From NCBI GenBank assembly GCA_008632985.1, contig QPGO01000090.1, forward strand, positions 248,001 through 312,000: a stretch of DNA of 64,000 nucleotides, written 5' to 3'. The position numbers were made by a program, and so were the translations under genes. The stretch comes from Psammoneis japonica. Its lineage: Eukaryota. Shown one piece after another: positions 36,586 through 60,096 of this stretch (its first letter is position 1; every line of letters starts with the position of its first letter). The notes beneath the pieces were generated by a model. That model ran no database searches, was not told where the DNA came from, and saw only the letters and a list, made by a program, of their open reading frames with translations.

Positions 36586-36639
36586 GTGGAGCGCCAATGG
36601 ATGGTCATTGACCACTCAGTGGTCAGTGATTGCATGAAT

Positions 36640-37590
36640 TCCACATGAAACAGTCATGTTGGAAAAAACGCGTTGAACAACAAGTGCATTTGTGCGATGT
36701 GCTGTTTTGGTGGCAAATTGGAAAAAAAGAGTGTCTGTGCACCTCACTGCAGCCCCAAAAATGGCATGAGCCATCAAACACAATGGTCATCCGTGTCACT
36801 GGTGCAGTGGCCACGCCACATTGCCGCTGCAACCCCGGTGGTGTGGTGGTGCAGCAGGGCCCTGCGCACTGTGCACACCGCACAGGCAATGCAGCATGCA
36901 ACAGCACACACCCACACCCACAAAGAAAGACAAGTGGTCAATGCTCCTCATAGGCCTGGTTCATTGACCACTCAGTGGTTGGTGATTGCAGACTTTTTCA
37001 TGTTGGTTGGGCAGTCGGGGGGTTGGGCAGTTGGTTCGTCTGGATTTGAGAGTGTGTCCCTTGGATTTTGGAACAGCATGGGTTGTTCAGTGCAAATGAG
37101 TTGTTGCTTGGATTTGTGGAATGAACATTGAGGACATTGGAGGTTGTGGTGACATCCTAAAAAATTGACAAATTTCCTGTGACGGGTGCATGGAACGGTT
37201 TTTCAGGAGAGCTTGAAAGTGCTGCAAAATTGGGATTGCCGGCGTGGCATGTTGAAAAATGCACTGAGCTTTGAACAAATGGAGTTTGTCATGAATTGTG
37301 CGTGAAACAGTCACATTGAAAAACAATGTTGAACAACAAGTGCATTTGTGTGATGCGCTGTTTTGGCAACAAATTGGGAAAAAAAGAGTGTGTCCGTGCA
37401 CCTCACCACAGCCCCAAAAATGGCATGAGCCATCACATGTGACAGTCATCCACGTCACCAGTGTGGTCCCCCCGGCAGTGCAGCAGGGCTCTGTGCACTG
37501 TGCGCACCATGCAGGCAATGCAGCGCGCAATGGCACACACCCACACCCACAAAGAAAGACTGGTGGTCAATGCTCCCTGCAGGCCTGGTT
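36640..37590 (+). repeat. Two ~300-bp direct repeats (~36640-36960 and ~37300-37590)
   Basis: Shared GAAACAGTCA...GTTGAACAACAAGTGCATTTGTG...CAGCCCCAAAAATGGCATGAGCCATCA...CACCCACAAAGAAAGAC. Confidence 0.85.
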
Positions 37591-40500
37591 TTGTTTTGAG
37601 GTCAAGAGAGGCAAGGTGCTTGGCTTTTTGCTTTTGAACCATGAGCCGAGCCACAAACCGCAAGTTGCACTCTCTGTTGCCCTCTCTGCTGCTAGAGTCT
37701 CTCTGCTGCCAGAGCTCTGGCATGCAGTGGCTGCTCTCTCTGACTCCAGCAGATGCTGCACAGTGGACAGAGTGGTGCCAGCACAGAGAGGCCTCCAGCA
37801 GCTGGGGCCCTGCTCTGGTCAGTGGCTCCACCAGCAGAGCACCACACCACAGTGCTGGCCACAGCAGAGCATGAGTCATCAGTCGTCAGCACCATTCGCA
37901 ATCCACAAAAAATCACCAAAACTCCCCCCACTGTTGTGCCACAGCAATCTCTGGAATTGTGCATTGCAGGAAAGGTTGAGGGGGGGGGGGGGGGGGGGGG
38001 CATTTTTAACATGCTTTGCATGAGGCAACACACCACCACATTTTGAGTCTTCTTGCTCTCTCAACACAGCACACTGCACTCTGCTGCCACTGCACAAGGT
38101 GAGCACATGTGCTTGGAAATGTTGTGAGTGCCTGGCTCTCTCTGACCAACATCCCTTCTGATGCTGGTGCCTCATGCAACATTCTTCAAACCCTTTCTTT
38201 TGGGAAAAAGAAGCAGTGCATTGGCAGGCTGAAGACAGCAGGCACCAAGCTCAAAGAAAGACTTGCCCAAGCCACAAGGGGAAGCAGCTGGGAGGCCCCA
38301 AATGGTGGCAAGAAGAAAGCCAGCAACAACATTGCAGCTGAGGATGTTTTTTTATGATGACCCAATGCTGTCATCAAGGACAGCAATTGCAGCTGGAAAT
38401 GCGGGAAAAATGCAGAACTCTCCATCAGTCCAAGTTTGGCTTTGCCAAGGGATTCCCCAAAATTTTTGGGAGTTGCCACCTTTTGCCATGCTCTTTTGCA
38501 GGGAGCATGAGTTCCTGGAGAATCACCACAAATGCTGCTTTGTCATGTGTGTGCTGTGGAAATGAACTCAAATTCAGGCAGTGGGAATTCCCTGCATTTC
38601 TCCTGCATCTTAACCATGAGCCTGGGTCATGTGAAAGTCACACGCAGGTTGTCACACTGTGGTGAACTGCATTGTCCCCCGTCAGTGCCACAGCCTCACA
38701 CCATCCAACAACTGTTGTGTTGAGCTTGTTCCAAAAACATGTCACAGCAACAGGAGGGAAAAGGTTGGTGGTCAATTTTGAAATTTTATTGTGAGCATTG
38801 AGAAATCTAATGCTGAACATGCCATGCTGCAAGTTCAGAAACAATTGCACAATTTCTTGCCCAAAGCAGGGCTGCTGATTTTGGCACTTTGAGCAGATGC
38901 CCATTCCACATAGAATGTGGCATTCAAAATCTCATGTCAGTTGTCCCAGTCATTTCATCAACTCACCCTTGTGTGGCAGTGGGCCATGTGATCTGTGCAA
39001 GTTGAACATTTTTGACTTCTGGCACATTTTCTGCAGGCGCTGCATGCGCGAAGCTCAAATTGTGTGCCCAAAGCAACAGCTGCACCTTTGTGCTGGAAAT
39101 CATGCAATTGTTCCCAAATTTGCAGCACCGTCATCTGTTGCAATGATGCCAATGGAAAAGAGCAACAGCATTGGATGCAGCAAAGGCAGTGCCAGGTGAC
39201 ACAGACCTGAAAACACAAATGTTCCATTTTCCCTCCCTTTTCACCTGTGCGCAAATGAAAGATCTCATCATGCTGGCCAGGAAACAGCTTGCACAACTTC
39301 AAATTTCCATGTTGTCATTTCTTCCCCTCAAAAATTTCCTCACTGATGACATGATGCTCAGGACACCAACAGGGAGATTGGCACATCACTCACTCTTTCA
39401 AATTGACCACATGGCACCACCTTGCAAGCTCTCCTTAAAACACAGGAAAGTGCAAAAAGTCGCTCAAAGAAGAGGAAAGCAATGTTTGCAGTGTGTGTGC
39501 AAAGTTGACAAAGCTTTCAACAGCAGGAAAGACCTCATTGTGGCATTTGGTGCCAAGCAACTCTTTCAACAGATTTTTGTTTTGAAAGACAAGAGCCAAA
39601 AAAAATTGTCAAAAAACATGAGCACAGCTTTCAGTGCACCAGGCCAACACTCACAACGGCAATTTTTTTCTTCTCAGTTGTTTTTTTTTCTGCCAAACGT
39701 CCATTTTTTCTGCCAGCCCTGCCACTGAGATGGTGGGCACATGACATGCGCAAAGTGGCAGAGCCATGCAAACTTGACAAGCATGACTCAGATTCAGTGC
39801 CAACTTGCTGTTGGTGCGCTGCAGCTGGAAACCATGGAAACCACCTCACCATGGCAACTCTGTGGTCCCTGTTTTCTCAACGGCATCACCTTCAAGAGCC
39901 GCAACAATTGATGATGTGTTGCTTGCATCTTGTGAACTTGTGTGTGGCAGAGTTGACATGTGGGAGTGCAACAGGCTCATTGTCAACTTTTGTTGTCAAA
40001 AAGTTTCACTGCAACCAATCAGCTTCAAAGCATGACAAGGTGTGCACATGTGAAATCAACTGTGAGCTGTCAAGACATGTCAGCGTTATGGTGAGTTGTG
40101 AGTTTGTGGCTCTGTTGGTGGAGCACATTGCATTCGCGGTCACCATTGTCATTGCATTTTGACAAGTCATGGAAAATTTGAAATGTCCAACACTTGTGTT
40201 GGCAGGCATGTGATTGAACACAGGTTCTTCACATGGTGCAGTGCTTGACACACAGAGCACATCCAATTTTCACAAGCAATCATGGGCTCATTTCATCAAC
40301 ATGTGGTGCATCAGCACAGATTGTCAAATGCAAAATGTGCTGACATCAACATGCAAACATTGAGCTTGCCACCAACAAACAAAACAGTGGACACTTGGCA
40401 AAAAAATGGGTGTTTTTTGTCTGTCAATGGAAGGCATCATTGCCGAACAAGCTGAGCATGGCATTGAAGCCAACGACAACACAGAAGCAAGAGAGATTTT

Positions 40501-42247
40501 CTGCACTGTGCTACGAGAGCTGCTTCTCCAAGCAACATGTGTGCCCTGCAGCTCATGGGGGCACCGCTGCTCCTTCTCTTCTTTGTGCAAGAAAGCCATG
40601 AGGACCTCATCTGGATCATGTGCCAAGATGCTGCCAGTCTGGAGAGTTCTTGGCCTGGGAGCACCATGTGGCAATGCCCTCCTCTCAACATGCCCACCAA
40701 AAAGCACAAATCCAGGGGGGTCCAGTGCTGTGCTGTTGTCATGTTGCCCCCCCCTTCCTTGCTCTTGTGCAGCCAGTGCTTGTGGCTCACATGCCTGGGG
40801 GGAACAAAAAATCTGAGCTCTGCAACTGAGATGTCACACACATGGAAATCACAGCTGAGTGCTTTTTTCTTTTTTCTCAGCATCCTATGAATGACTTGAG
40901 CCAAGGCACTGGCTCTGACCACCAAAGTACATCCCACACGTGTGCACAAGTCAACCAACAAGTGTGGGTCGACCGCCTGGTGCGCGACATTCGGGAGTGA
41001 TTGATCACACTGAGGGTGATGTGCTCTTAAATTTGATACGTCTGTACGTCGTCTCACGGATCGTGGGGTCTTCGATGCGCGCACCCAGCACTTAGACTGC
41101 TTACTCACTGGCTATTGGCGATGGCAAATCCAAAATCCAAGTTCACGATGATGACAAAGAGTTGGAGAGGTCGTCATCAGCGATGAAATTGGCACTGAGC
41201 ATGGGGTAGATATTGTGAGTGACTCTTCTCTAGCACCTGCCATGTGATCGATTAATTTCTGCAAGTGATGTTGAAACAAAATACGCCGTTTACCTGTCGG
41301 ACTTGCGATGAGGCTGACATACCTCAATCGATGTCGAGAAGATTTTGAATTCAATGACTGATGCTGTTGTTTCATTTGATCGAGCTTTGTATCCATATAC
41401 TCGAATCAATTGTTTGCTCACGCTATGTGCTCTTTTATCGATAATGTTCTTTTTGATGCTGTTCGACCAAAGGTATAAGGTATGTTACTTGCATCCCACA
41501 TCCTTGGGTTACGAGCACGAGTTCATTTGTTTTGACTGTGAAGATCCAATTCGATCGTGACGTTACCCATTGTGTGGCAGTGGTCGATAATCAATATCAG
41601 TCTTTAAAGTTCTCTGAGTCTACAAAATGAGCATGCAATCGCAGGATGAAAATGCAATGTGCTTAAGCATTTCTCTCTAGCTAGAGACTTACGCGTTTGT
41701 TCCTCCTTTTTGTACCGATTCTTCTTCTCTCACTGTAGAGACATAATCCTGGCGTCGCCGTTGAGGGCAAACCTGGTAAGACTCGTTTTAGTTTGCTCTA
41801 GTAGATTGTTTCAGAACCCTACAAACTTGGCTATCGCATAGACTTTTTGGTCCATAATGTGACGGTTTGATCATGTCGGGAAGAGTAGTTCCTTGCCATT
41901 CTCTCCGAGTGCGGAGTCAGATACACTGTTGACGCATTAGCACTATCATAGAAAGGCAAACACCCAAACTTCTGAATGAAGCAATGATGGTTTCACATCT
42001 TTGACCGACTCACACTCTTTTCATTTCGTTTGACGGATAAAGTTGAAAACATGGAATGATGGACGTTTGACCGTGCAACTTTGACGTGAGAAAGGATGTG
42101 TTGAAAGATTGCTTTCTCACATTATTCGTACGTGGAACCAGTGCGGTTTTTGGTGCAGCCTTTTCCACTGTGCGATTGCAAGCGAGCGGCGCAATTTTCG
42201 GCGACGATACAAGTATGAACACCGAGCAACACTGCCTCACTGCAAAC

Positions 42248-43053: not shown

Positions 43054-43773
43054 TCACCGCAAAGGAGTTTCACATAAGAAGGCTTTTCGAGGACTTCTGC
43101 CACTACTTTCGTTGATTTCACTCAGCAACCGCTCGCTTTCATGTTCTGCACGATTGGCTGCTGCCAGGTCAGGCCACTGAGACTCACAAAAGTCTCTCCA
43201 AATCTCCACGGCCACATCTGGCGAAGCCGTATGGTGTTCATACTGCTCCTTGGAACACACGTGCTCGTCTTTCTCTAGACACTCCTTTGCCCATAGAGGA
43301 GACCGTCCCCACTCATCTTCAGCACAAACATGAGCGGGCGATGGTTCAAGAATGATGTCCTCTGTCCATAAACAAAGAGGTCTCTTTTCTAGAAGCTCAG
43401 GTTTCTCGGCGAGACAGTCTAACGTATGCAAGACTCGACCGCACGGAGCTCCGGCTCGTCTCTCCTTTTGAAGAGGCCACCCAACGACCAAACACGCCAC
43501 GTTATTCTCCTTTACTACCGTATGAATCTCATCTACGATAGCCTTATCGAGCTTTCGCCGGTTGTTGCGAGTCTCGTACTTCATTTGAATCGCTTCCAGC
43601 TTGATGGGTGGAGACACTTCTCTTCGAGACGGATGAGGTGCCAGAGCCATGCCAATACGGTCGCTGCCAATGTCGAGCGATAGCGCGTATCCCCCAAGAT
43701 GTTTCCAGTCTAGAGCATTGGCAACTCTGGATGGTGTCGTTATGAACGTTGTCAATTTGCTTACCGTTCTCAT
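43054..43773 (-). CDS. YqgF/RuvX-like RNase H-fold protein
   Basis: LSLDIGSDRIGMALA and LVVGWPL...GAPCGRVL motifs. Confidence 0.75.
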   Translation of the reverse strand: MRTVSKLTTFITTPSRVANALDWKHLGGYALSLDIGSDRIGMALAPHPSRREVSPPIKLEAIQMKYETRNNRRKLDKAIVDEIHTVVKENNVACLVVGWPLQKERRAGAPCGRVLHTLDCLAEKPELLEKRPLCLWTEDIILEPSPAHVCAEDEWGRSPLWAKECLEKDEHVCSKEQYEHHTASPDVAVEIWRDFCESQWPDLAAANRAEHESERLLSEINESSGRSPRKAFLCETPLR

Positions 43774-44240
43774 GGTGTCTTTTTCTTCTGCGTTGCATGT
43801 GGGAACAAGAAGAGACGAAACAAACAGAAGGCCCGAACGAGAATTTTGTGACCGAATTTTTTGAATTCGCGCGGTGTTCGGTTTCTGGCCACACGTCTGA
43901 TGTCACGAATGTCACAGAACGTGCGACAGCTTGTCAGTCTGATGTGGTGTGTGGTGCATGACTGACTAAAAATGACGTGTCAACCACGTTTGTCTGTGCA
44001 CTGTGCACCCATGCCGACAAACAAATGAAAATGGGTTATCAGCCATTGAATTGGGAAGCACCGTTTTGTTTCCAAAATCGATGCTTCTTTCATCTTCTGC
44101 ATTGTCAATTGACATGCTTTGTGCCTCTGGGGGTGTCAGATTCATGGTTCTGAAGAATGCCATCACTTTGTCACAAGAAGGGCGGCCTTTTTTCTCTCCA
44201 AGAGGAGGACAGACTGGCTGTCAGCAGAGCTGGGGGCTGT

Positions 44241-44516
44241 TGACAGAAATTGAAGGCAAATGGCAAGAATTCAAACAATGACTCCTTACTGCTGTCTAAA
44301 TGGCAGATGAGTCTCCGCTCAGAGACCGTTGCAGGAGCCGAAAGACGTGTGAGTCGGTGCAATCGGGCTACTGTCATTGTTCTTGTGAGCCTTGTGGCTC
44401 GAAAGCAAACTGCATCGCGCGTGAACGCGCGGAGCTAAAGCACACAAAACTGTGCGCGGTAAACTAAACAGCGCGCGACACTTCGCGCGCATCCAAATCC
44501 TGTTCAAATCCTGTCA
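44241..44516 (-). repeat. 3' LTR (TpA-converted copy)
   Basis: TGACAG...CTGTCA; 11 transition differences from the 5' LTR. Confidence 0.95.
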
Positions 44517-47500
44517 CTCCCCAGTTTGCTTGAGGAGCCACAGAAACAGATTCGACTTCGGATGGAATGAAGTTCCAGAACATGAGGGGGCGGAGAAGGT
44601 CCCAGATTTGGGAGTGACCCCAATGCTTGCTGAGAATGTCAGCAGGGTTGCGGGAGCCTTCGATGAAGTGGAACTCAAGGTAACCAGAGGCAATTGCCTC
44701 ACGCACACGGTGGAACGACAGTGCGGTGTGTCGCTTGTGTAACTTGGAGTGCGGGATGGTGGCACTGTCTACAACCGACTTGTTGTCACCGAACATGCAA
44801 CTGACATTGCGGATCGGGACGCCAAGGCAGCGCAGGGTGATGCGCAGGTCAACAATCTGCTCAACACAATTCCTTGCGGCAACAAATTCAGATCCGCAGG
44901 TTGCAGTTTCCACGGTGGCTTGTTTCTTGGAGAACCAATCAGCCGGGAATTTGTTGAGGAAGTGGAGCATTCCCATGACAGAGCGTCCGGTGAGCATGCA
45001 ATGGTGCAAGTTTGCGTCGACGCAGTGGGTGGCAGTGACGAACTTGCCAAGGGGCAGTGGAGCGTCCTTCGGGATCATCTCTTCTGCTTCACCATGCATG
45101 GAATGCATCCATTCATGGGCCGGAGCAGGGAGATCCGAACAGTCAGGCTCTTCCGTGCGAACGCGGAGAGCACCGTGTCGCATCTTGGAGAGGCACCCAC
45201 ACACGCGTTTGGCACGATCCAAGTGGCCTTGACGGGGTGCAGCTCGGAAGCTAGAGAGTGACATGACAGCCGTGGCAATGTCAATTCGACCAAGGGACAC
45301 TGCCCATTGGAGTGAACCAACAAGAGACTGGAACTTGTGAATGCCATCGGGTCCCAGCAGTTCGGAAGTGTCCAGTTCGGGGTGGTCACCCTTCTCTAGA
45401 GGTGACAGGGCGTTGGTGGCAGGTTTCTCCCCAAACAGTCGGGCGCAGCTGTCGACCATGCGCTCGATGTACTTGCGCGGAGACAGGCACAAGGTTCCGT
45501 CGGGGTCCCGGGAAAAGTCGCAACCCAGATGGAACTCAATGGGTCCCACACCCTTGAGCTTGAACTTGCACTTTTCCGTGAGAGCATCGACGAAAGATTG
45601 GGGGTCCTTCATGGCAATGGCGAGGTCATCCACATAAACGGCAATGCATTCACAGTGGTCGCCGTTCCTGCGCATCCAAATGTCGGGTTCGGCGCGGCAG
45701 GGGAAGAAGCCTTCAGCTCGCAGGCAGTCGGCGAAGCGCTCGTGCCAGCGGAGACCGGAGCTGCGCAGTCCACACAGTGCCTTGTGGATGACAAGGATGT
45801 GTCCTTCGAGTTTGCCAAATTCGGGTCCAGCTGCAATGTAAAGCTTCTCCTTGGTGGTGGCTTCAAGGCAGGCATTGCCAATGTCGGTGGCCCATGTCTC
45901 CAGCTCGTTGAGTTCGGCCAGGAAAATCATCAGCCGAAGGCCACGGAGGGAGACTGCTCCGGAGTAGACACTGTCGACAGGTACGTCCGTGAGGTGCCCG
46001 TCGGCTACGAGTCGTGCCTTGTGGCGACCGTCGTGTTTCACGTCGTACACCAGGTGCACTCGGATCTTCTTGTGTCCCGCAGGAGGAGTGGAAGACTTGA
46101 AGGGCCCGCAGTCATGGAAGACTTCGTATTCGTCGAGTTGGTCCATCTCGAGATTAGTTGCGTCTCCCCACTTGCGGTTGCCGTTGCGTTTGTCTAGTGA
46201 CATGGCGTGTTTGTAGTTCCGGGGAACTTCGCATCCGTACTTGCAGCGAGGTGCAGTGCGGAAGGAGCGAAGCTTGGCTTGGTTGGCCATGCGAAATAGC
46301 TTCTTTTGGCGCCTTGCGATAGTGCGGAACCGCTTCCAGCCATCCGTGTCGAGGAGTCCGTTCTCTCGTGCATAGATGGCACAGGTGACGGGGTCGTCCT
46401 TGGCGATGATGGCAAGAGGCTCGGACGTGATCTCCCCACTTTCCCATTCAAGCATGATGTTGTAGCTTGAGCCTTTCCAGGTTGGGTCGTGAGGCTTCAG
46501 AGGTCCTTCGTGTGATGCGATGCGTCGAAATTTCCAAATGGTGGTGTCTTCGTCTTCTTGCTCAATGTGATTCATGATGTCATTGTAGGCAAGGACTTCC
46601 TCGTGTTCATCATTGTTGACAGAGCAGACGAACTCAGTGAGCTCGGGATTGCCGTTCACTTTCCATTCGTGGTCTTCGACGGCCTTGACGATGCGAGCTC
46701 TGTGGCGTTGTCCGTCCTCTTGTGGCTGCATGAGGAAGGTACGTCCAATGATGTCTTGCGGATCGAAAACTGGCATCTTGGGTGTCCTGATCTCCCCATC
46801 AGGAGAATCGACGGGGTTGTCGTCATGGCGAGATTTGATGATGGGTTCAGGTGGCTCCCCATCAGGAGGATCAAGACGCAGGTTTCGAACGGCAGGATCG
46901 GGGGTGGCGGAGTGAACGTTGGACCGGTGGAGGATGTTCTGAGTCTCGTCAGATAGGATCTTGAAGGTCATCTGGTGGCCGACGTGCTCAGCAATGCCAA
47001 CAAAGCGTCCACGCAACTCACGGGATTCGGGCGGCCAATCGGAGTCATCGAGGTGGAAGCACACTGGTTCCCACCAGTGAAAGCGAAGCAATGGGCTGAT
47101 GTCCGGGGTGGATCCAGTGAGAGTCTCGAGGGGCGTGCGCCAGTGGAGACGTGGGGACGCTGTGTGGTTGAGCATGAAGCACACGCACATGAGCGCCAGC
47201 AGTGCCGCAGACGTCGGTGACGGTAGACTCGGTGCCAACAAACAGTTGGGCGCTGGTGCAACCAGAGTCGACGGCCGGGGTGTCGGCGCAAACGGTGTCA
47301 GTGGCGACAGGCTCGTTGCGGCGGTGCACATTAAGGGCGGGGTTGGGTGATTTGCAGGCCTTGCGAAGGTGTGCACCGGCGGGCATGCGGGCGCACTGCG
47401 TGGTGCAGTCAAAAGTGCGACGGACCGCATCGACAGGCAGGAAGCCAAAGCAAGGCCGAAGAGACTCGAAGGGGGGGTCCTTGGGCTGCACAGTGCGCTC

Positions 47501-49906
47501 CGGAGGTGGAACGTCATCGCCATTGGGGTCAATCGCATGCAGATGACACTCGCAGAACACGTCGTCGTTCGGAATGAGGTGATCATCGAGGGCGGATGCG
47601 TGATCGGCAGACAAGGAAGCGGACAAGATGGTCTCGTTGACAACGACACGGTGACGGCAGTTGCCGCATTCGTCAAACAGGTTGGCAGTGGGATCGTCCT
47701 GCAGGTCAGAGATCGCGTCGCACCACTGGTCGTCGTCAGTGACAGAGTGATCGAGGACGGAAGGGTCCCATGTGTCATCACCGGTGAGGATGACATGGGG
47801 CAGGGTGTCCCATTCGGCGTCAGTGTAAGGTCGCATGGCAACACAAGGCAGGCCAGCCTTGATGTCAATGGGGATGACACAGCCATCAGGAGTGGCAATG
47901 CGTTGCAAGCCGTTGGGCACCTTGACAGAGCGATCGTTGACATCCTGTTTGTGCCATTCGAGCTGGCCGCAGGAATGGATGGTCTTGCCCTTTCCCGTGC
48001 ATGCGCACTGATGGAGGATGGCGATGACGGGACCACGCTGGGTCTCAATGACGGCACCAGCGGTGACAATGGGGATGTCCACCAATTGATGATCGTCAAT
48101 GCCCTGAACGTCGACTTGGCGAGAGGTGCGTGCAATGACGTGAACGTCGTCGCCAGCAATGCCGCCGTTGGCCCCACGATCGACTGGAGCGCCAGTGCGT
48201 GTGGAGCGATGAGCAGAGGCAGAGCAAATGACATTGTGGTTGTTGACGCGGCGGCAAGTGCGGCCGTTGAGTTCTGTGTCATCTGCAGGAGCTGGTGGGG
48301 CAGAGGAAGTGGCGGATGGCCCCGGTCGACTGGCATTGGGGGCTTGGTTAGGTGACAACAGACGTTGCAGATCACCGGGTGGCAGTGGCTTGCGCTTGGT
48401 GAGGTGCGCCAGGATGGGATTATCCGAAGTGGCGTCCACATGTGTGGCGGAGTCACCACAGTCAGCAGGAGTCGTGTTGGACAAGTTGACATCACCGTCA
48501 CTCCCAGGGTGTTGGTCGTGAAGGTTGGCCGTAACAGACTCATGGCAGTTGCTGGCTCGCGGGTTGCGGGGAGGCGGACGAGAGTGCTCAAGGATGATCG
48601 CCTTGGAGGAATCGGGCAACGAATCCCAGAGCCGTTGGTGGTCGGGAGGGAGACGTCTCCATTGGACACCGGTGAGGCTGGGACCGCGGGTGCAGGCAGC
48701 ATTGGCTTGAAGGACGTCAACGTCGCTGTCAATGTCGTAGAACACATCGTCGGACGGTTCCTCGGAGCAAACGTCGTGTGCGCATGTGGCGCGTCGGGGA
48801 GCTCAAGGTGTCGTCTTGGGTTGAAACGTGCTGTCGTGCTGAGCTGCCGCAGAGAGGAGCAAGCCACAGCATTGATCGCATGTGAGGCTCTTGCCACTCT
48901 GCGCACGATGCTGATCAGCTTGGTTCTTGACAGCACGGAGTTCCTCGACAGGGTGCATGGCATTCTCGAGCATGACGCGCTTCTGTCCTTCAGAGAAGTG
49001 GTCGCTGGCGGGGATGAGTGCCTCGCACTTGCGCAACTGATCTTGCCAATGAAGGATGAACCCGTGGGTCGGACCTTTCCAAGTGCCATCACCAAGACGT
49101 GCGGTGGTGAGGTGCGTGAGCAGGGTGGAGGACTCGATGGATGCACGGGTGGAGGCAAGCGCGCACTCAGACAAGGAGCGGCAGACGGTCTGTGCGTCAG
49201 AAGACCCCACATTTTCGCGAATGAGAGCCTTGCCCTTGTCGGTGAGAAGGATGCGTTCGAAGACGGCGAACATGTGCTTTTGCTGTTCAGCAAAGAGCAG
49301 TTTGTCTTCAGGGCTGGTCGGTTTGTACGACGAGTCTAGAACGCACTCGACGTCTTGGGCACGGGCTTGTGCCACAAGTGAGGTGTGCCAAGTGTGCCAC
49401 TGCTTGTCGGATTTGAGAGCCGTGAAAGCGGTGGGATCACGCTTGATGCCTCGCTTGAAGTCTCGCACCGGGTCGCGTGCCTTGGTCAGGTTGGTGACAT
49501 GTGGAGGTGCAAGGGGTGAGCTGCCGATGGACACAGAGGACATGCAGTCCGGGCTGAGGCGGCAGGCAAGGAACTCGTCATGCGTGAACAAAGAGGAGTC
49601 GTTGGCAACGTCAAGGCCTTTGTGTGCTTTGACAATGCACAGGCTAACTGGCGCTGCTAACATGTTCTCATAACCACGGGGCAAAGGGATTGCATTGGTG
49701 CCGTTGTCGCACTCAAGCGAGTCGATTTGGGACGGCATGAACGTGAACAGTTCCTGATGCGAGTCCGTGCCGTCTTGGGCCAAAGCCAAACGAAGAGGAC
49801 TCCCAGCACCTTGGGCAAGCACGGTTCCAACAACGTGCTCGAAACCATCGGTTTGTTGCTGACGAGTGAGAACCATGGCAGACAAAAGTGGTGTCAGCAC
49901 AATCAA
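44464..49906 (-). pseudogene. gag-pol polyprotein remnant (gag 48803-49906; PR/IN N-part 47045-48745; IN C-part, RT and RNase H 44464-~47200)
   Basis: FKRGIKRDP (gag), VDRGANGGIAG (protease), RHKARLVADGH, AVYVDDL, WFSKKQATVE, NPADILSKHWG; frameshifts and an integrase-core deletion. Confidence 0.93.
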
Positions 49907-50815
49907 TTCTGGTTGGGAAGCGAAGGCAGACTCAAAACTTGGGTGAGAATGGACTTGACTTGAAACAGACTTGACTTGAAATCTTGAACTATCTTAAAAT
50001 CAGAAGTCGCCGGGCTTTGTTGTCCCGTTCGTTGTCAAGTGCTAAACTTCCCATCCGGTCCGTAGAGTTGTGCCGGCACGTCCGAACCCGCAGCCAGCGG
50101 CGCTTTGGGTTGCTTGCGAGCGGAGCAGCGGGTTGTAAACCCCTGCAGGCAAGCTGACTAGAGGTGGACAAGACCCCCGAACTGTTCTTGTTTTATGTCG
50201 GTTGGATTTCCCGATCAGGCTGGCCAGTTGACGCAGGCGTTGGGCGCTGTGGACGAACGAACAAACGCGGGAAAGCACCCTCGCCCCAACGCAGGCTGTG
50301 ATCACGGCTGCTTGCTCTCACAGTCGTCCTCGTGGACCTAGTAGAACTGTAGAGCACCAGTAGTCCGGGGTAGATCAGGTACAATGGACTCGGTGTGCTT
50401 GTAGAGTGGTGGCAAAACCGCAGTCCGAAGGGTGGGTACAGGTTCTTGGCCGTGAAGATATGTATATATATATATGTCTTCAGCGACGAAGATCCTTGAA
50501 TATGTAGGGTTCTTGACCGTTAACCGATGAATAGGTATATCAAGGGATGAGGATCAAGGATAGACTTGGATATGACCGTTGAATGTATGTCTTCAGCGAT
50601 CAAAGGCAGTATAATGAATCCAGACATCCAGCGGCAAGGAGACTTGACGGTGACGTTAACTTCCTGCCGATGCCCTGGTATTGGATGCGCGTAGACTTGC
50701 CGATGTATGTAGAATATATACGGAGGTCCACGTAGAATTGAAATAGCGTCGTTGGTAAATCAACGACGACGATGGCGGTTGCTCAATGGGTTGACAATGA
50801 GCAAGACTGTTAATC

Positions 50816-51091
50816 TGATAGAAATTGAAGGCAAATGGCAAGAATTCAAACAATAACTCCTTACTGCTGTCTAAATAGCAGATGAGTCTCCGCTCAGAGA
50901 CCGTTACAGGAGCCGAAAGACGTGTGAGTCGGTATAATCGGGCTACTGTTATTATTCTTGTGAGCCTTGTGGCTCGAAAGCAAACTACATCGCGCGTGAA
51001 CGCGCGGAACTAAAGCACACAAAACTGTGCGCGGTAAACTAAACAGCGCGCGATACTTCGCGCGCATCCAAATCCTGTTCAAATCCTGTCA
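50816..51091 (-). repeat. 5' LTR (TpA-retaining copy)
   Basis: TGATAG...CTGTCA, followed by TSD GCTGT. Confidence 0.95.
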
Positions 51092-52949
51092 GCTGTGCAC
51101 AGCCATGTGCTGAGAAAATTTGCACAGTTTTTTGGGCACCCAAGTTGTGCAGCAAGTCAACTGCTCAGCCATTGTCTCTTGCAATGGCAGCATGATGAGA
51201 GTCCACAGTGCACCACACTCCTTGTGTCAAACAATGTGGGCCCCCATGAGCTCTCTCATTTGCCGTTGTCAACTCCACATGCCTTGTTGCTCACATTTTG
51301 CACACAGGTGTCATGAATTTGAAATGGACAACATAAAAAACATTCATCAATGAGGACATTCAACAACAAAAATTCAAACAGTGGATTTTTTTAGAAAGCG
51401 GCAATGTGCTGCTTTTGCCCCCCGCCGTGCTGTGACATGCAGCACTCATTTGCCCTGCCGTTTTCACCAAGATCTCCATTGACCTGCTTGCTGATGCTTG
51501 CAAATTGGGTTTGTGTGTCAAACAATGGAAAGCCACTGTCTCTTGGAGTCACTTTGCAAAGTTTGCCCCTGCAACAAGAGGACAGACTGGCTGGAAGAAG
51601 AGACATGGACCGATTTTCACTTGCAAATTGAAAGTGTTGTCACCACACCAGCACAATGTGCAAAACAGAACGTTGGGAATGGCACATGTCATGTGCAAAC
51701 ATGCAGTCAATGTCCACATGACAGGCATGTAAAATGACTGCACATGACTCTTTGTGCAGAATTTGTGCCAGCTGCTGGTGCATGCTTGGGGCTGGATGAA
51801 ATGAGATCCAACAACGGCACTCCATGTCAAGTGAGTTTGAATGTCAGAGCTGCCAAAATTGACCAAAACACCAGCCACGTCTTTTGACAAAACATGCAAA
51901 CATGGATGTGGTTCATGAAGCAGTCAGAGTTGAAAAGCAACACCAAATTTAAAATGTTGACTTGGCCAGGAAAATTTTTCAAATCTTTTGACATTGTGCT
52001 TGCAAGTGGCAAGCATCGACTTTTGACTTGGAGCTGTGCAGGTCATCAGTGAAGCAGGGCCTGCATCTGAAAGATGGCCCAGTCATTTGCCAAAAACCAC
52101 TGTCATCAGGTGCCATTGTGTGAAAATTGCAAAACTGGTGTTTGGGATGTTTTTGGCAGCTCACACTGTGCCAGCCGCACAGCTCCACAATTGTTTGACT
52201 TTTCTGCGCCCACGAAGAGCAAAATGCTCAACTGTGAAAAGTGCCAAAATGAACAATGAAGCTCTCTGTTAAAACAAAGTTGGGCTTTTTCAACCCCTGC
52301 AATTTTGACCAATTGCGCTGCTTTCTCTTGGACAAATTTTGCACTTGTGGCTCAGGCAGCTGCGAAGAGATCCATGCTGCGCAGAAATTTGCACAGCACA
52401 TCTGAAAGGGCAAGGGCAGTGGCATGCAAGAAAGTTGTGGACAGATGACAGCTTGCTGGGGGCACATGCAGAAACCATGCAAAAGTGACTTTTGGCAACA
52501 ATTTTGGGCATCTTGTTGGCCCTGGTGTTGTTCAAACTTGTTGGTTGCACACCAGTGTGTTGTCATTCTGCTGCATGCATCGCTTCAAGAGTGTTTGAGC
52601 TGAACATCTCCTGTGGGCCAAAATGAGGTGTGAGCTGAGTCATTTTTCTGAAGTTGGTGACAAAGAGGAACATTGACATTTTGCCACTCAACTGGAACAA
52701 CAGGTTTGCATCAAGAAGAAAAGTGGCGCCAAATGCAAAAATGGTTGCGGAACTTGCAATTGTGGTGCATGAGTTAAAAAGAGAAAATGCCAGAACAAGA
52801 CATTTTGTCTGGCATTGGTGTGGAAAAAATCAAAGAGCACATCCTTGGCATCTTCCTTTCACACAAGTCTTTGCCCTGCTTCATCTCAACAGAGGCTCCA
52901 GCCAGCAGAGCAAGATTTTTGACAATGTGGGCAAGAAATGTTGTTTGCC

Positions 52950-53790
52950 GGCCCCTGGCCAGAAATGTTTCTCACCACTCACCGGAGGTGTCCTTTGCCG
53001 CTGCTGGCCAGAAACATTTCTTGCTGCCAGCAGCCAAAAAGGTTTCCCACCACTCCCAAGACATGTTTTTAACCACTGGCTGGAAACTTTTTTGCGGCTG
53101 GCCAGCAGCATTTCTCACCACTTGCCAGAAATTTTTTCACTGCCAGCCAGGAAAGTTTCTTGCCGCTTGCTGGTGGACATTTCTTTGCCACTCTGAAAAT
53201 GTTGCCAAACTTGCCAAAAGTTGCCAAAGCCACCAAAGCTGATGACTGATGAAGTCACCAAAGTTGACACAGGTGACAAAGTTGACACAGGTGAGAAAGT
53301 TGGCAAAGCTGACAAACACTCCAAGCTTGCCAAAGCTGAAAAAGTTGCCAATTTTGCCAAAGTTGACAAAGTTGCCACAAATCTGACAAAGTCGCCAAAA
53401 TTTCCAAACTTGACAAAGTCAACAAACTTGCCAAAGTTGACAAGGATGACAAGAAAGCTGACAAACTTGCTGAAAGTTGCCAAAGCTGCCAAAGTTGACA
53501 AAATCACTGAAGCTGACAAACTCACCACTCTCGCCAAAGCTGACAAGCCAAAAGTGTTGTTTGCCATTGCCTGAAACATTTCTTGCCACCCACCAGAAAT
53601 GTTTTTTGCCACTGACCAGAAGCAAGCATTTGATGCCATTTCTTGCTAGAAACATTTCTCGATGCTTGCCAGAAATGCTTTTTGCATCACCGGCCAGAAA
53701 TGTTTCTTGCCGCCACTCGCCAGAAATGTTTTTCAATGTTTCTTGCCACTGGCCAGAAATGCTTTTTGCCAGTGGCCAGAAATCCTTGTT
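52950..53790 (+). repeat. Composite minisatellite: ~23-bp units flanking a ~9-bp unit array
   Basis: CCAGAAATGTTTCTTGCC-like units at ~52960-53190 and ~53570-53790; GCCAAAGTT/GACAAAGTT units at ~53200-53550. Confidence 0.8.
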
Positions 53791-55169
53791 GCCACCTCGT
53801 GCTTCAAAGTTTGCACCCAGCGCTGACATCACACGGGCAAAATTGCACCATCTGCTGCAGCGCAGTGCAACAAGAAGCTTGAGTGGCAGAGAGCTCACTT
53901 TGTGCCAGCCGCTGGACAAATGTTTGCAGCATTGGGCCAACAACTCTTGCCAAAGCCACTGCAGAAAAACCAGTTTTTGCCTCCTGCACCAAGCAGCAAG
54001 CTGATGGGTTCCAGTCCTGGGTGGGACTCCGTGTGACATTGGGCCCGCAGAATTCTGCGTGCGAGCTCCGCAGTGCAAGAGCTCAATTGATGGATGTGTT
54101 TGTCTTCAACATCAAATGAACGGCCAAGTTTGTGGTGCAATCGTGCCTGTTGCCACTCAACGTTTTTGCAAATGCGCGTGCCCTGCGCAATTCTTGAGGC
54201 ATTGTAGAATTGCGCTGCAACAAAAAATGTCAAAAGTTGTTGGACGGATCGCTCAACAAGTGCACCGTAAAATGACACAAAATGTCAAAAAAATCATGTG
54301 GAAATCTGCGTGCGTGACATGCGACATGATTGAAAAAACTGTCGATGTCACAGCTCAGTGGTGCAAGGTCCCACCCAGACCTGACTGGAACGCATCAGCT
54401 GCAAGCATGACAACCCACTGCCTGACCAAGTCAAGCCCACCCTGGTGCAGATCATGTGTCAAGCCATGGCTGCAGCCTTTTGCAATGATGACAGCAGCCA
54501 AACTGTTGCCAGCATGGTTGCCCTCACGCTCTTCTGTCTGCTTCTCCATCTTTTTGAAAACATGTTGGGGTGCTCCTTCAAACATGTGCCCAGCCTGCCT
54601 TGATGACGTCGAACTCTGGGTTTAGCCAACATTGTTGCAATGCATTTGCCACCTCATCTGGTGACTTGGCTCATGTCTTGTTTGCTGCTCTGGCCTTCAG
54701 CACCCAAAAAAGGGGCACAAGGGGGTCAATTTTGTCAGGTTGGCATGCAGCAGTGACCCAACAACACCATGCCCGCCCCCCCTGGCAATGGCCTGCTGTG
54801 CACACCACCTCCAAGCACATGGCACAACTTGCGCCACACATCCAGGGCCATCTTCTGCAAATGTGGTTGCTGCCATTTGGTCAAGCCACCTGATGTTGCC
54901 TGATGTTGCAGCTGCCTTGTTGGCCTCCACAGCCATGGCCAACCCACCAGCTGGCTTTTCACCTTGTGGTGATGTTGGCGCTCAACACTTGTGAGCTTCA
55001 GGAATGATGGCCCTCCTGTGTGCACAAGTGGGCAGTGTAACATCATCCACCCATCTGCACAACTTCTCATGCCACATGGTGAGTGGAGGGGCCTTCACCC
55101 TGCTCCCCACCAGCCAGAATCTCCCTCCCAACAATGCTGGCGACACACTTCCAGCCACCTCCAGTCAGT

Positions 55170-55650
55170 GGCATGCCTGCCTGTCCTGCACACACAGGCA
55201 AAACAGGTGGGTGGCACGCGCCACTGTGAATCTTTGATTGCCACCAATGCTGCCCCCTGGTGTGATGATGCAATCTGGTTGAAGCAGTGTGAGCAGCTGT
55301 GAGCTGGGCAGCAGAATTGGGAGAGAAACCAGATCTTGCAGACTGAAGAGACCTGGAGCCAAGTCAGGATCACCTTCAGTGTAACCAGCAAAGATTGCAC
55401 TGCCATCATTGGCAAACACATGCACCATGAAATTGCTGATTGCTTGATTGACAATGCATCACTTTGTTGCAATGAGACTAAGATGACTTGACTGTGAGGA
55501 CCAGGCAAGCCAGTGCAGTTTGTAAGTGCCCACCCACAGCCGCCTGGTGTGCCTGCCTGTCCTGCGCACAAAGGCAGCACAGGTGGCTGGGTGGTGCATG
55601 CCACTGTAAATCTTCAATTGCCACCAATGCCAGCTGGTGCAATGATGCCC
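55170..55650 (+). repeat. Two ~100-bp direct repeats (~55170-55270 and ~55550-55650)
   Basis: GCCTGCCTGTCCTGC...GCCACTGT...TTGCCACCAATGC in both. Confidence 0.75.
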
Positions 55651-55845
55651 TCTTCTTCCATCTGTGCCCCCCCTGTTTTCCTTCTTACTTCCACTGGTGG
55701 CTTGGATTCTTGTCCCAAAGGACAGGTGGAGCAAGACTTGATGACGAGTTTTGAGATCTGAGAGCTGGAAGCAGCTTCTAGCTAGCACCTGCATGGTGTT
55801 CAAGGAAAATCAGGAGAACTTTGAAATTTAGACAACATGTTCAAC

Positions 55846-58233
55846 TTATGACTTGATTGCGTGATGTGCAAATTGCCCCAACTTGTACCTGTCGTATTGA
55901 GCATATAGCTCCTTGTCCCGCTCTGTTGACCCATGGGCTTCTAGTCGTAACCTCAATGTTTGCTCAGTAATGGAAGAGGGAAAACTTGGTACGTGCACAG
56001 AACTTTCTGCACAAATCAACTCCTCCACAATTAACAAGTCCACCTGCTCTTGTAACTCGCCGTCATTTCCCACTGCACTGGTCGCCAAAGTTGTTGTTTT
56101 GATGAGCTCGGAAGCAAGAAAGTCCTCAATCATGAACACAGGGGTCGACAAGTTATCCAAACCCATGACTGTGTCCCGGACCCACAGAGGGTCGTTTGTC
56201 GAAACGAAGATGGCATCAAAATTGATAGCACATATGGGAAACTCGTCATCGATGCCACCACTGGAAGTGCATTGCAAGTGATGGAATAGACGTTCCCAGG
56301 TGAGAGTATCGTGGCTGAGGTTCGAAGGTTTTGCGGATGTTGAGCAGCCAAACGACTTTTCGCCTTTGATGAAGAACTCATAGGGGTACAGACTACCCGT
56401 GCTGGTACAGCTGACCATTGGCCATGTCACACGATCTCCCCGACGCACGTGCAACGTAACAGGCGCAGATCCTCGTCAGTCTCCAATACTTGTTGTCGAA
56501 TCGACAACAGCACCTTGTCCTTCAAGTCGTAAAAATCTCGATGGAAAGGAAAGAAGATACGGTCGCCGTGTGGAAAATACTGGGGAGGAGTAGCAATGTG
56601 CACGGCACCCCAGTCACAATGAACTTGAATAGAATGGTCATTTGGATACGGGTCAACTGCCAGTTTGTTCTTCGGGTTAGGTTTATGCTGGTACGGGACT
56701 CTATTTCGTGGAGTGCCCGGATGACAACCAGGCTCTCCGTGGATGCAGAATTGTAGACGAGACCTGGCTCGATCGACGTCGTAAGAATTTCAAAGGCCAT
56801 GTGATTCTTTTCGTGTTTCGAACCGGTGTATCCATCGCGCGGTACGACCAAGGTTCGATTGTACTGGACTGCCAGATTGCTTGAATCTGAAGACAGATCA
56901 TTTGGTTGGTGAGTCCGCCATGGGAGGGTTTAATGACTAGCCACCGATCGTTCCCCGCGATCTCGGGCGGCTTTTCCGTTGTGGGATGTATCTCTAGTTG
57001 GTCTACCTGTGGACGTGAGGCCGTCGACGACGTAGGCTTGTCGCGTATCATGCCCGCATCAGAAGTGCGATTTTCAGCCAACAAATCATTTGTCGTGCCC
57101 ACACACTGGTCACAGAACGCATAGTAGTCGTAGTTAGCTATCAAGTAGTCCCGCACCATTTTCTGGAGCTCTTCGTCTTTCCAGATGCATTCAGAATCCT
57201 TGTCACGTGGTTTATTCGTTGCCCGAAAGAAGTAGTCAGCTTGAATCCTTTTTCGCTGGAGTCGTTCACCCATCCATTGTATGTACTGATCGTGCTGATG
57301 AAATTCAAAGCATTTGACATGGAAATTGTCCATTGATTCGAGCTCGGAGCTATACCGGTCTTTGGCAAAGAGACATCTTTCTATTTCTTGGTAAACCTCT
57401 TTTGGGCTGGAGCTGTCGCAACGAAAGGGTCTCTTCCCCCCATTTTTCTGATTGCAGTAGGACATGAGATGATCCACAGGGTCCCGACAGGGCACGTGAA
57501 GCTCCACAGGAAAAGGCCAGTCCTCGAAAAGTTTCCAGTTGGTCCAATCGGGGCCTTCAAAGCTGACCCAGTCGCAATCTTGGAATCCAATCTCTTTCAT
57601 TATATCGGGGTGTACCCGCCCGCGACTGTATCCCGAATTCAATTTTGTATATGAGTCTTTTGTACGATACCAGTTCTTCTCTTGTGATTTTTCGCGCTCG
57701 TTGACAAGATAGGCGTCGTAGGAGTACCCCTTATTGCCGCAGACACGTTCGTATTGCATGGCCAGTTCTCCATTGATGGATGTTCCCGCGGTTTTGGCTA
57801 TGTGCACATGACCATACAAAACTGTTGCGTCTGGGCCGGTTCTTTTTTCATTTTCGTTCGAAGACGGATGGGATGGAGCGGAGATGCGGGAAAGCCCAAT
57901 AGAAGCCAAAAGAAGCAACACGGAGGCTGTGAGTAGCCACCAGCTTCCAACATGGCAGGTAACTTGGATACTGCTGGGTCTGACTCCTGGAAGCTTTCCC
58001 CTCGTGTTTCGTGTCAGATCATCCTCCTCATTGGAAAGAAGTTTGCTCACTTCTTCTACATCAGCGTCGTCCACTTCCTGATCAACGACGTCCATGATAG
58101 AGAAGGCTTGGGCTTGTGCACTACGACGGCTCGTTAGCGATGAAATCCGTCCAAAATACCTCCCTGTATCGTACTGGGTAGACATTCTAGAGTAGAGTCG
58201 GGAAGCAGCGACCGTAACATCGCATCTATTCAT
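55846..58233 (-). CDS. Type II membrane protein: sulfotransferase-like domain followed by an O-fucosyltransferase-like domain (frameshifted or spliced)
   Basis: TM helix; HVHIAKTAGTS (PAPS-loop-like) and RDPVDHLMS; then GGLTNQ, NRTLVVP, HVRRGD, IFVSTND, EELICAES spread over frames. Confidence 0.65.
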
Positions 58234-58538
58234 ACTACTTTCCCATAAATTGTGCAGTTGGAAGTGACCTGGGAATCGCTGAAATGCGTTGGATCGCGCG
58301 CAATAATCATTGATGACGTGTCAGTCGTGCGTTGAGTTAGTTCTTCACAAATTGCGTTGTCTGCATGATCGCATGTGGGTGTGTGGTGTGTTTCGGAGGG
58401 ACCTGTTTCATTGAAGACATTGAAGATCGAAGATCGGAAGCCAAAGGTGATGGGGAAGCGACACCACGACATTGTTGATGCATTAATGGTGCGTGGGACG
58501 TGTCGAAAGCCCCGTTTCTTACAATATAATATTACAAT

Positions 58539-59606
58539 ATGCGTAGAAGTCGCATCAGCATTGTCATTGTGGCAATCACAGCCATTCTTCATGCCAGTGA
58601 TTCGTTTGTCGTGCCTTCATCGCTTCCTTGTCAAAAAACAGTGCGTTCCACAGGGTTGTCGCGTGGTTCACAAAGCGTTGGGGCGGCGATACGAAACAAT
58701 GTTGAAGTTGTAGTAGATCATTTGATCAACGCCATTGACACGACAAAAGAGAAAGAATCAGAGGGCGTAAACGGTGCTCTCGTCACGGAATTGCTGGATA
58801 GTCTGGAAGAAAATTCCACAAAAACTGACGATAGCGACCATCCCGATCGCTTTGATCCGCTCTTGGGTTTGTACGATGTGGCTCATGTTGAAAAGAAACG
58901 AGAGCGAGACAATCCTGTGGGAGGCAAATGGACTCGCAAAACTGGATTGGCACAAAAGATACTAAAAACGAGAAGAACCTTTCAACATTTGCTCGCCACC
59001 AACAGTACGGGATTGTCTAATCCCAATTTGGACGCAAGCGTTGTTGCAGAAGCAGTCAATGTGATTTCGTTGGATGCTTTGTGGGGTTTGATTCGATTGA
59101 CTATTATTCTACGAGGCGATGCCGTGCCTCTCGAGACTAGAGAACGGCTCGACAATACAATACCCCTGACCAATCTTGCCGTACGAGCGTTTTTCGATCG
59201 GCCTAGGATTGTCATTGGAAAGACTGGACGATTCGTCAACCTTAGTCTTGGGCCGACATCTAGTGTCGTGTTGGATTCTACTTATATCGACAATCGAGTT
59301 CGAATAGGCAAAGGTGGAACGTCGGGCACTCGATTTGTCTTTGTGAAATGTTCAGACGACGACCAGGAAGCTTTGGAGTTCAAATCCCTTTTGGAACGGA
59401 AACCGACACGAAAATCACGTATCCTTGCGTTTTTTGGTGCAATCACCTCCGCAAGTATCTATCGTGCGGTCAATCACCCGAGCTTTCGAGTGGCGGGAAC
59501 AGTCATTGGCACGGTCGCATCACTCTTGTGTTTGGGGCTCCTCAAGTCAACCGGGGGAATCGAAAAGGATGATGTATCCTATCGAGAAGGTGTCAGTAAC
59601 AGTTAA
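58539..59606 (+). CDS. PAP/fibrillin-like plastid lipid-associated protein with C-terminal TM helices
   Basis: Signal peptide then SFVVP; LDSTYIDNRVRIGKGG..GTRFVF C-terminal fibrillin-type motif. Confidence 0.65.
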   Translation: MRRSRISIVIVAITAILHASDSFVVPSSLPCQKTVRSTGLSRGSQSVGAAIRNNVEVVVDHLINAIDTTKEKESEGVNGALVTELLDSLEENSTKTDDSDHPDRFDPLLGLYDVAHVEKKRERDNPVGGKWTRKTGLAQKILKTRRTFQHLLATNSTGLSNPNLDASVVAEAVNVISLDALWGLIRLTIILRGDAVPLETRERLDNTIPLTNLAVRAFFDRPRIVIGKTGRFVNLSLGPTSSVVLDSTYIDNRVRIGKGGTSGTRFVFVKCSDDDQEALEFKSLLERKPTRKSRILAFFGAITSASIYRAVNHPSFRVAGTVIGTVASLLCLGLLKSTGGIEKDDVSYREGVSNS

Positions 59607-60096
59607 TATCTGAGTTTGACTGAGCAAGTGTGGAACTCTTCCACCGTTCCCGTTGCTCTAACTTCGCCTTCGTCCAACTGCGGACCTGTAGAGCAGAGGA
59701 AGACACACTCCCTCTACAGTAGAGGCCTACATAAAGAAGTAACTAGCTAGCGACCCCTAGAGTAATCTCGATAAATGGCCTGTTGAATATCCCAATTCCT
59801 ACTACAGTAGTGAAATCGTGTTACAGGCGGAATGAATATCCTCCCACTTCCTCTCTTATTAGTTGTTGGCATCAGATTGCACGCTTCGCTGAGCGACTAT
59901 GTACCGTACGGTAGATGAGACCGCAAACGCACTGGCGATCAGACCGCCTCACCGCAATCACCAACTAACTAACTCTCATTGGTTTGTGTCAGTCGAGTCG
60001 CTGAACACTAAACACTGAACAGGCATCTTCGAGACGCTGCTGTAGTTATTGAACGTACTTTTCGGCAAGAAAGCAACACGCTCGTTGTGGATTATA

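Follow-up and report, generated by a model that had tools for sequence, protein, structure and literature searches.

In this study, we analysed a window of 64,000 nt from the genome of Psammoneis japonica (assembly GCA_008632985.1, contig QPGO01000090.1, positions 248,001 to 312,000 of the forward strand), and all coordinates given here are those of the window. The segment at 44241-51091 is a defective Ty1/copia retrotransposon that was inserted recently and belongs to a very high-copy family. Its two long terminal repeats (LTRs) differ almost solely at TpA dinucleotides and always in the same direction, and the 5' LTR is the copy that kept its TpA. We consider it rather probable that a TpA-specific hypermutation of DNA, acting on both strands, struck this young insertion in place and spared the 5' LTR and the adjoining leader.

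A repeat search of the window revealed a direct repeat of 276 nt (44241-44516 and 50816-51091) that can be aligned without gaps at 96% identity. The long pol frame and the RVT_2 domain lie on the minus strand and a purine-rich tract, a putative polypurine tract that was read off the sequence (44517-44527, minus strand), adjoins the copy at 44241; therefore, the copy at 50816-51091 is the 5' LTR and the one at 44241-44516 is the 3' LTR, both on the minus strand, as the initial annotation had oriented them. Compared position by position, the LTRs differ at 11 sites, all of which are transitions, with no indels and no transversions. The 3' LTR has G where the 5' LTR has A at 44280, 44302, 44331, 44359, 44379, 44412 and 44434, and C where the 5' LTR has T at 44244, 44360, 44375 and 44479, which reproduces exactly the differences that had been listed initially, including the 10 of 16 changed TpA and the unchanged CpG. 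The polarity was uniform, with A or T always in the 5' LTR and G or C always in the 3' LTR (the probability that all 11 would share one polarity is about 1e-3). Ten of the differences fall inside a TpA of the 5' LTR, which became TpG in six cases and CpA in four; the probability of at least 10 of 11 differences falling by chance on the 32 TpA positions among 276 is 4.3e-9. The exception is 44434, where GAGCT in the 3' LTR stands against GAACT in the 5' LTR. As a result, the 5' LTR has 16 TpA and the 3' LTR has six, while none of the 21 CpG that each of them carries differs. The termini of the 3' LTR, TGACAG...CTGTCA, form a perfect inverted repeat owing to the C at 44244, and the earlier reservation about the direction of change at this site is therefore justified. 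Because 10 of the 11 differences stem from the TpA process, dating by LTR divergence gives a wrong result for this element, and the warning to that effect was well founded.

The assignment to Ty1/copia is based on LTRs that end in TG...CA, a short target-site duplication, an RVT_2 reverse transcriptase domain (PF07727, 45448-46086, minus strand, E 9e-26) and an integrase part upstream of the reverse transcriptase. The duplication, GCTGT, is 5 bp long and intact (44236-44240 on the left and 51092-51096 on the right). The gag-pol region (44548-49876, minus strand) begins with an ATG at 49876 and has a broken frame. Full-length homologues are collinear with the element over 49876-44548, their integrase part lying ahead of the reverse transcriptase; the alignment follows one frame from 49876 to about 47205 and another from about 47286 to 44548. 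Two defects account for the state of this copy: an in-frame TGA at 48803-48805, between gag and the remaining pol, and the loss of approximately 60-80 integrase residues together with a frame change near 47205. Contigs of other family copies hold extra sequence at 47200-47202, the site of this gap. No Pfam match to gag or to the integrase core domain rve was found in the degraded element copy. An untranslated leader of 939 nt (49877-50815, minus strand), with stops in all three frames, separates the 5' LTR from the gag ATG. With regard to composition, the element falls into two parts. The depleted part (44241-49989) has 42 TpA in 5749 nt, an observed/expected ratio (o/e) of 0.159 for TpA and 0.91 for CpG and a GC content of 57%, whereas the island that comprises the 5' LTR and most of the leader (49990-51091) has 61 TpA in 1102 nt, a TpA o/e of 0.894 and a CpG o/e of 1.12. 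Going upstream from the gag ATG, the boundary between them is reached after approximately 110 nt, and there is no 5'-to-3' gradient inside the element body.

The direction of change is from TpA to TpG or CpA for the element as a whole, on which four tests agree. In order to polarise the coding part, a library of 1.8 billion proteins was searched, and 150 pol homologues found in it were stacked as a query-anchored blastp pile. At the 23 columns in which the consensus is Tyr, the element has Tyr in six, Cys in eight, His in three, Phe in four, Trp in one and Ile in one, and 11 of the 23 thus show the exchange of Tyr for Cys or His. At 349 other conserved columns the element matches the consensus in 308, and 10 of 11 consensus His were kept. 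The composition of its pol (Tyr 1.3%, Cys 2.9% and His 4.9%) can be compared with roughly 4%, 1% and 3% in the homologues. As a control, we used 50 related copia loci from metagenomes, 47 of which had a pol TpA o/e of 0.48-1.18, with zero or one Cys and zero to two His at the consensus-Tyr columns. At the DNA level, 30 sites had TA in 60% or more of no fewer than eight unmutated relatives; in the element, these were TA in 10 cases, CA in 14, TG in four and AA in two, which means that 18 of the 30 were CA or TG, while 28 of 29 CG sites in the same comparison were kept. The initial annotation had proposed this polarity for the LTRs and had also named the reverse case, in which TG or CA would be the family state and the 5' LTR would have gained TpA; the available evidence agrees with the former, as the TpA-poor part is the derived one.

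Further information on polarity came from other copies of the family, which were represented by Logan contigs of sequencing runs that carry the DNA of the window; the runs come from one sample and their depths are not copy numbers. In one of them (X1), 14,244 contig pieces fell on the stretch, and the variant places comprised 117 A>G, 110 T>C, 97 G>A, 71 C>T and 56 transversions. At 45965/6, the window has TA and the other copies have CA (62%) or TG (21%). Moreover, the consensus strings of loose contig ends showed that at the LTR site 44279/80, which is TA in the 5' LTR and TG in the 3' LTR, other family copies have CA, and that they have TG at one TpA that both LTRs retain. TA is the only state that is one step from all of the states that were seen at these sites, which is best explained by an ancestral TA. 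For the other ten LTR sites, the polarity was taken from the element-wide result; among the 40 listed of 452 variant places, none was in the LTRs. The same contigs also cover a weaker TpA-retaining patch in the reverse transcriptase region (45750-46750, TpA o/e 0.44-0.49), in which the window has TA at seven listed sites while CA or TG makes up 52-100% of the depth of the other family contigs; mutated states are hence widespread, and partly shared, in the family. Private CpG transitions were found as well: at 45056, 45145, 46315, 46913 and 47597, the element has TG or CA in place of the CG that essentially every other contig of the family shows. Ordinary CpG decay has therefore set in to some extent in the body, even though the LTRs show none.

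Both strands were affected. On the sense strand of the element, the LTR differences comprise seven T>C and four A>G; in pol, the Tyr-to-Cys exchanges, which correspond to A>G, number eight and the Tyr-to-His exchanges, which correspond to T>C, number three, and the DNA-level comparison of pol gave 14 A>G against four T>C. The excess of sense A>G in pol (14:4) over that in the LTR (4:6) was not significant (P = 0.097). A stretch of DNA that is no retroelement copy carries the signature too. The segment at 35260-36583 is a tandem copy, at 77% identity, of 33566-34904, which lies within an intact ankyrin-repeat gene of normal composition (Ank_2, E 1e-36). The 49 TA of the intact copy became CA in 22 cases and TG in 17 cases in the mutated copy and were kept in one; its 79 aligned CpG became TG in 30 cases and CA in 23 cases and were kept in 16. 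TG and CA themselves were kept in 67 of 90 and 71 of 95 cases, respectively. In Pfam scans, the mutated copy is fragmented into weaker ankyrin pieces.

The local context of the affected sites was also not random. In the LTR, eight of the 10 converted TpA stood in an ATA or TAT context compared with none of the six that were retained (Fisher P = 0.007). Correspondingly, this context accounted for only eight of 42 surviving TpA in the body of the element (P = 8e-5) and for 11 of 50 in the older depleted blocks of the window described below (P = 1e-4), compared with 49% in the background. The survivors in the older blocks were rich in TTAA (13 of 50 against 3.6% in the background). The side on which the additional A or T stands did not agree with the strand that was edited; what is favoured therefore seems to be AT-rich surroundings of the site and not one fixed base at position -2.

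A dinucleotide scan showed that the element is not the only depleted region of the window. Against a host background in the rest of the window with a TpA o/e of 0.58-0.60 and a CpG o/e of 1.0, three long stretches stand out: block A (27960-33010, TpA o/e 0.042, CpG o/e 0.29), block B (35250-40930, 0.048 and 0.22) and block C, which is the insertion site of the element and is split by it into a left part (43763-44240, 0.06 and 0.75) and a right part (51092-55600, 0.050 and 0.25). In these blocks, CpA and TpG together reach about 1.8 times the expectation. Their edges are sharp and could be resolved to about 100-300 nt, and on the left side of block B the edge is also that of the ankyrin duplication. 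Each block is about 5-5.7 kb long, a similarity that may be a coincidence. The near absence of TAA and TAG gives rise to long spurious open reading frames (ORFs) in several frames. Pfam scans of 46 ORFs and two more from blocks A-C revealed no transposon or viral domain; the matches were the ankyrin copy and a fragment of a host aldolase at a block edge. The near saturation of TpA loss together with CpG decay in these blocks suggests bursts of TpA mutation that were followed by a slow loss of CpG. In the element, CpG is still intact beside the TpA loss, which means that the TpA process runs at a much higher rate than the decay of CpG.

The same signature occurs in environmental relatives of the element. 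Among the 50 metagenomic copia loci, three were poor in TpA and had lost Tyr: L035 (pol TpA o/e 0.15; of 14 consensus-Tyr columns covered, Tyr in one, Cys in five and His in five), L031 (0.26; of 16 columns, Tyr in none, Cys in five and His in eight) and L014 (0.32; of 17 columns, Tyr in eight, Cys in six and His in three). L035 and L031 belong to one family and align without gaps over 1722 nt at 94.5% identity. Of their 99 differing positions, 65 fall within TA/TG/CA sites, among which CA faced TG at 20 sites, CA faced TA at 13 and TA faced TG at 12. Opposite products at the same site indicate that each of the two was hit separately after they had diverged. In controls with normal TpA, differences fell on TpA in two of 20 cases (L001) and none of four (L011). 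The terminal repeat of L001 (1-537 and 7493-8029) was rejected as an LTR pair since it overlaps the pol match, and it was used only as a copy-against-copy control. The terminal repeats of L006, L009, L012, L017 and L019 were 100% identical and lay at contig ends; they were uninformative and were dropped. An exact scan of metagenome contigs with a 32-nt stretch of the LTR found no locus.

In the mechanism that we propose, A:T pairs would have been changed to G:C almost solely at TpA after the integration of the element or, at the latest, when it was finished double-stranded DNA, and the strand whose adenine was changed would determine whether TpG or CpA was produced. The gag-pol region and the 3' LTR would have been affected on both strands, with approximately 60-65% of their TpA converted and CpG left untouched, while the 5' LTR and roughly 0.8 kb of the neighbouring leader would have escaped. 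Since the process would have skipped the 5' LTR, the two LTRs, identical at integration, would now differ in one direction at 10 TpA. The agent may be an adenine deaminase that acts on DNA and converts adenine to hypoxanthine, which is read as G, as was proposed for the chlorarachniophyte Bigelowiella natans. Its targeting might follow silenced chromatin, with the promoter-leader region being protected. The changes are confined to discrete regions and far exceed the background, with 10 at TpA against at most one other in the 276 nt of the LTR. The DNA was probably chromosomal when it was mutated.

This process has already been described in another protist. In mutation-accumulation lines of B. 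natans, two integrated viral regions had 231 mutations, 230 of which were A>G or T>C, every one of these at TpA; the rate was about 1000 times that of the background (Mettrop et al., bioRxiv 10.64898/2026.01.13.699255). The authors further reported 124 genomic clusters of windows that are poor in TpA and rich in CpA and TpG, as well as an enrichment of TpA-poor coding sequences in reverse-transcriptase and DDE-endonuclease Pfam domains, and they proposed an ADAT2-like deaminase as the agent (bioRxiv 10.64898/2026.01.13.699255). Both systems share A>G and T>C changes at TpA that lead to TpG and CpA on both strands (exclusively so in B. natans and almost only so here), discrete regions with sharp limits, and a lasting footprint of TpA depletion and CpA and TpG enrichment. 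What is new is the different phylum and the class of target. The host is a diatom, as follows from the best named match of its ABC1-kinase ORF, Epithemia clementina, also a diatom (69% identity), and from the matches of its DUF2254 ORF to Phaeodactylum tricornutum (53%) and to a marine protist transcriptome (63%); it is thus a stramenopile, unlike B. natans, which is a rhizarian. In contrast to the viral regions of B. natans, the targets here are a high-copy LTR retrotransposon and a duplicated segment of a host gene. Additionally, the element is partly spared, the older blocks have also lost about 75% of their CpG, and there are a mutated host-gene duplicate and environmental relatives, which add to what was reported for B. 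natans. In B. natans, mutation was observed de novo in the lines, whereas here it was read from sequence comparison. In a term search of the available text of the preprint, CpG, LTR, retrotransposon, diatom and stramenopile were absent (bioRxiv 10.64898/2026.01.13.699255). Full-text literature searches, whose coverage did not extend to subscription journals, turned up this preprint as the sole report of the mutation type and none that concerned diatoms, and the diatom transposon papers that were searched by term contained no content on TpA, hypermutation or deamination.

Other known systems resemble the process less. Like the repeat-induced point mutation (RIP) known from ascomycete fungi, it is a dense, transition-only and dinucleotide-specific mutation of repeated or foreign chromosomal DNA that destroys coding capacity. 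However, the C-to-T changes of RIP fall mostly on CpA and thereby make TpA, whereas here TpA is destroyed (o/e of 0.04-0.16 in the mutated regions), and RIP mutates both duplicates, whereas here one ankyrin copy is intact and the other is saturated; neither an excess of TpA nor mutation of both copies was found. The clustered transitions of the deaminase type in an LTR element are reminiscent of APOBEC and ADAR activity in animals. These act on one strand, i.e., the minus strand of the cDNA or the sense RNA, and before integration, while here both strands, unequal LTRs and DNA that is not a retroelement are involved. Blocks A-C, with their CpG o/e of 0.22-0.29 over three long stretches, and the ankyrin pair, in which 53 of 79 CpG became TpG or CpA, resemble methyl-CpG decay; the element does not, with none of 21 CpG differing between the LTRs and a CpG o/e of 0.91 in the body.

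Several observations weigh against a purely in-place origin of the pattern. If the 5' LTR had shared the rate of the 3' LTR, it would have been spared completely with a probability of only 1.5e-7; the island ends exactly at the edge of the element, which would be expected of a conversion tract or an assembly mosaic as well; direct polarisation by an outgroup was obtained for one of the 11 LTR sites only; the change from TA to CA or TG is common to most family copies at 45965-46741 (shares of 0.5-1.0), and part of the TpA depletion may thus have been inherited from source copies that were already mutated; and no deaminase domain was found among the 74 window ORFs that were scanned outside the element. 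Ectopic gene conversion, by which either the 5' LTR and leader (approximately 1.1 kb) would have come from an unmutated copy or the remainder from a mutated one, appears improbable to us, yet it has points in its favour. The family is very high in copy number, as the 14,244 contig pieces in X1 show, the island of approximately 1.1 kb has a plausible length for a conversion tract and stops where homology ends, the 5' LTR has no conversions at all, and there is the second, weaker TpA-retaining patch at 45750-46750. On the other hand, the LTRs have only one non-TpA difference in 276 nt and the longest listed contigs of other copies differ from the island by approximately 2-3% (12 of 620 and 18 of 564 positions), which means that only an almost-sister copy could have served as the donor; the intact target-site duplication rules out a crossover between elements. 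Were conversion the cause, the 11 differences would be differences between copies and would not have arisen in place, while the TpA hypermutation of the genome would still be real. An assembly or polishing mosaic, in which the element would have been put together from several copies and the LTRs would not represent one physical insertion, is in our opinion quite unlikely. The Logan contigs are fragmented over the element with no listed piece spanning it and the variation between copies is exactly of the TA/TG/CA type, but the matching 5-bp duplications, the collinear flanks from one older block and the similar mutated fractions in the 3' LTR (10 of 16) and in pol (11 of the 17 columns with Tyr, Cys or His) speak against it. 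Such matching fractions would be expected for one molecule with a single history. Thus, of the claim in the initial annotation that the changes took place after insertion, the polarity and the action on DNA stood, while its strictly post-insertion part is probable rather than established, because gene conversion or a mosaic would also lead to unequal LTRs.

The remaining alternatives place the mutation before integration or reverse its direction. According to the standard model of reverse transcription, the minus strand is single-stranded for longest over pol and the 3' LTR, while the leader is the first part to be covered and the 5' LTR derives from the plus-strand strong-stop DNA that is made early. 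Editing of adenine in the cDNA in the manner of APOBEC3G would therefore predict the geography that was observed, i.e., a spared 5' LTR and leader and an affected body and 3' LTR, with the LTRs being unequal already at integration. Despite this agreement, we regard it as very unlikely, because editing of the minus strand could yield only T>C on the sense strand, and both types of transition were found: A>G exceeds T>C in pol at the DNA level and as Tyr-to-Cys exchanges, and the LTR is mixed. Moreover, the body shows no gradient, and the signature recurs in the tandem duplicate of a host gene, in blocks that have no retroelement domains and in the chromosomal DNA of B. natans (bioRxiv 10.64898/2026.01.13.699255). 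Editing of the element RNA by an ADAR-like enzyme and its fixation through retrotransposition can be rejected, and we assign it hardly any probability. The preference of ADAR for A with a 5' U or T matches the A>G changes at TpA, as the preprint also indicates (bioRxiv 10.64898/2026.01.13.699255), and the non-significant excess of sense A>G in pol points in the same direction. Sense-RNA editing, however, could yield only A>G and would enter both LTRs, whereas the LTRs differ and sense T>C is frequent (seven of 11 in the LTR, with Tyr-to-His exchanges numbering three in the element, eight in L031 and five in L035). ADARs are not known outside animals, and the host is a diatom. Since A>G and T>C both occur on the sense strand, not only in the LTR but also in pol and the ankyrin copy, the earlier preference for a DNA process over RNA editing is supported. 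A RIP-like gain of TpA from CpA by the 5' LTR and the leader, or a family that is intrinsically poor in TpA, is likewise rejected and has the least credibility of all in our judgement. The TpA/ApT ratio of the island (0.8-1.25) and its (CpA+TpG)/(ApC+GpT) ratio (about 1.0) lie near the usual RIP cut-offs. Against this, the TpA o/e of the island, 0.89, is normal for the clade, in which 47 of 50 relatives have values of 0.48-1.18, and it is the body that is the outlier; conserved Tyr became Cys or His in the body, the LTR site with three states is best explained by an ancestral TA, and the TpA-rich ankyrin copy is the intact gene.

Outside the depleted regions, the window (1-27700 and 55700-64000) carries ordinary intron-poor host genes. 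In addition to the ABC1 kinase and the DUF2254 membrane protein, they encode an MFS transporter, a XendoU endoribonuclease, an AAA_16 ATPase (an ORF of 1017 amino acids), a PIG-V mannosyltransferase and three fragments of a Na/Ca exchanger. A weak RuvX-like match was found at 43054-43902. In the host background, there is an inverted repeat of 92 nt with 95.7% identity (3395-3486 and 7743-7832, approximately 4.3 kb apart), and blocks B and C contain short, diverged direct repeats with 67-86% identity (36633-36961 and 37290-37590; 53185-53781; 55174-55648).

Chromosomal hypermutation of A:T to G:C at TpA has one published case so far, which is the chlorarachniophyte preprint from 2026 (bioRxiv 10.64898/2026.01.13.699255). 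If it also occurs in a diatom, the process would be no peculiarity of one species, and retrotransposons and duplicated host DNA, represented here by a copia family, a gene segment and environmental contigs, would join its known targets. The young element with changes at TpA only, beside old blocks with CpG decay, would then provide a natural time series for studies of rate and targeting, and the search for the enzyme would narrow to the genes that are common to diatoms and chlorarachniophytes. LTR-divergence dating and repeat landscapes that are based on Kimura distances would be badly inflated in such genomes, and the spurious ORFs that arise in all frames from the loss of TAA and TAG can mislead gene prediction. 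We see about equal grounds for and against the wider possibility that diatoms, and perhaps SAR protists (stramenopiles, alveolates and Rhizaria) generally, run an adenine-directed counterpart of RIP. This would be an in-place hypermutation of DNA from TpA to TpG and CpA by which retrotransposons, along with further silenced or duplicated DNA, are inactivated, and it would be far quicker than the decay of CpG. It would work at a resolution below that of the element, sparing the promoter in the 5' LTR and the leader, and it would be common in nature, as may be reflected in the three of 50 environmental copia relatives that carry its signature, two of which acquired their changes at the same TpA sites but separately from one another.

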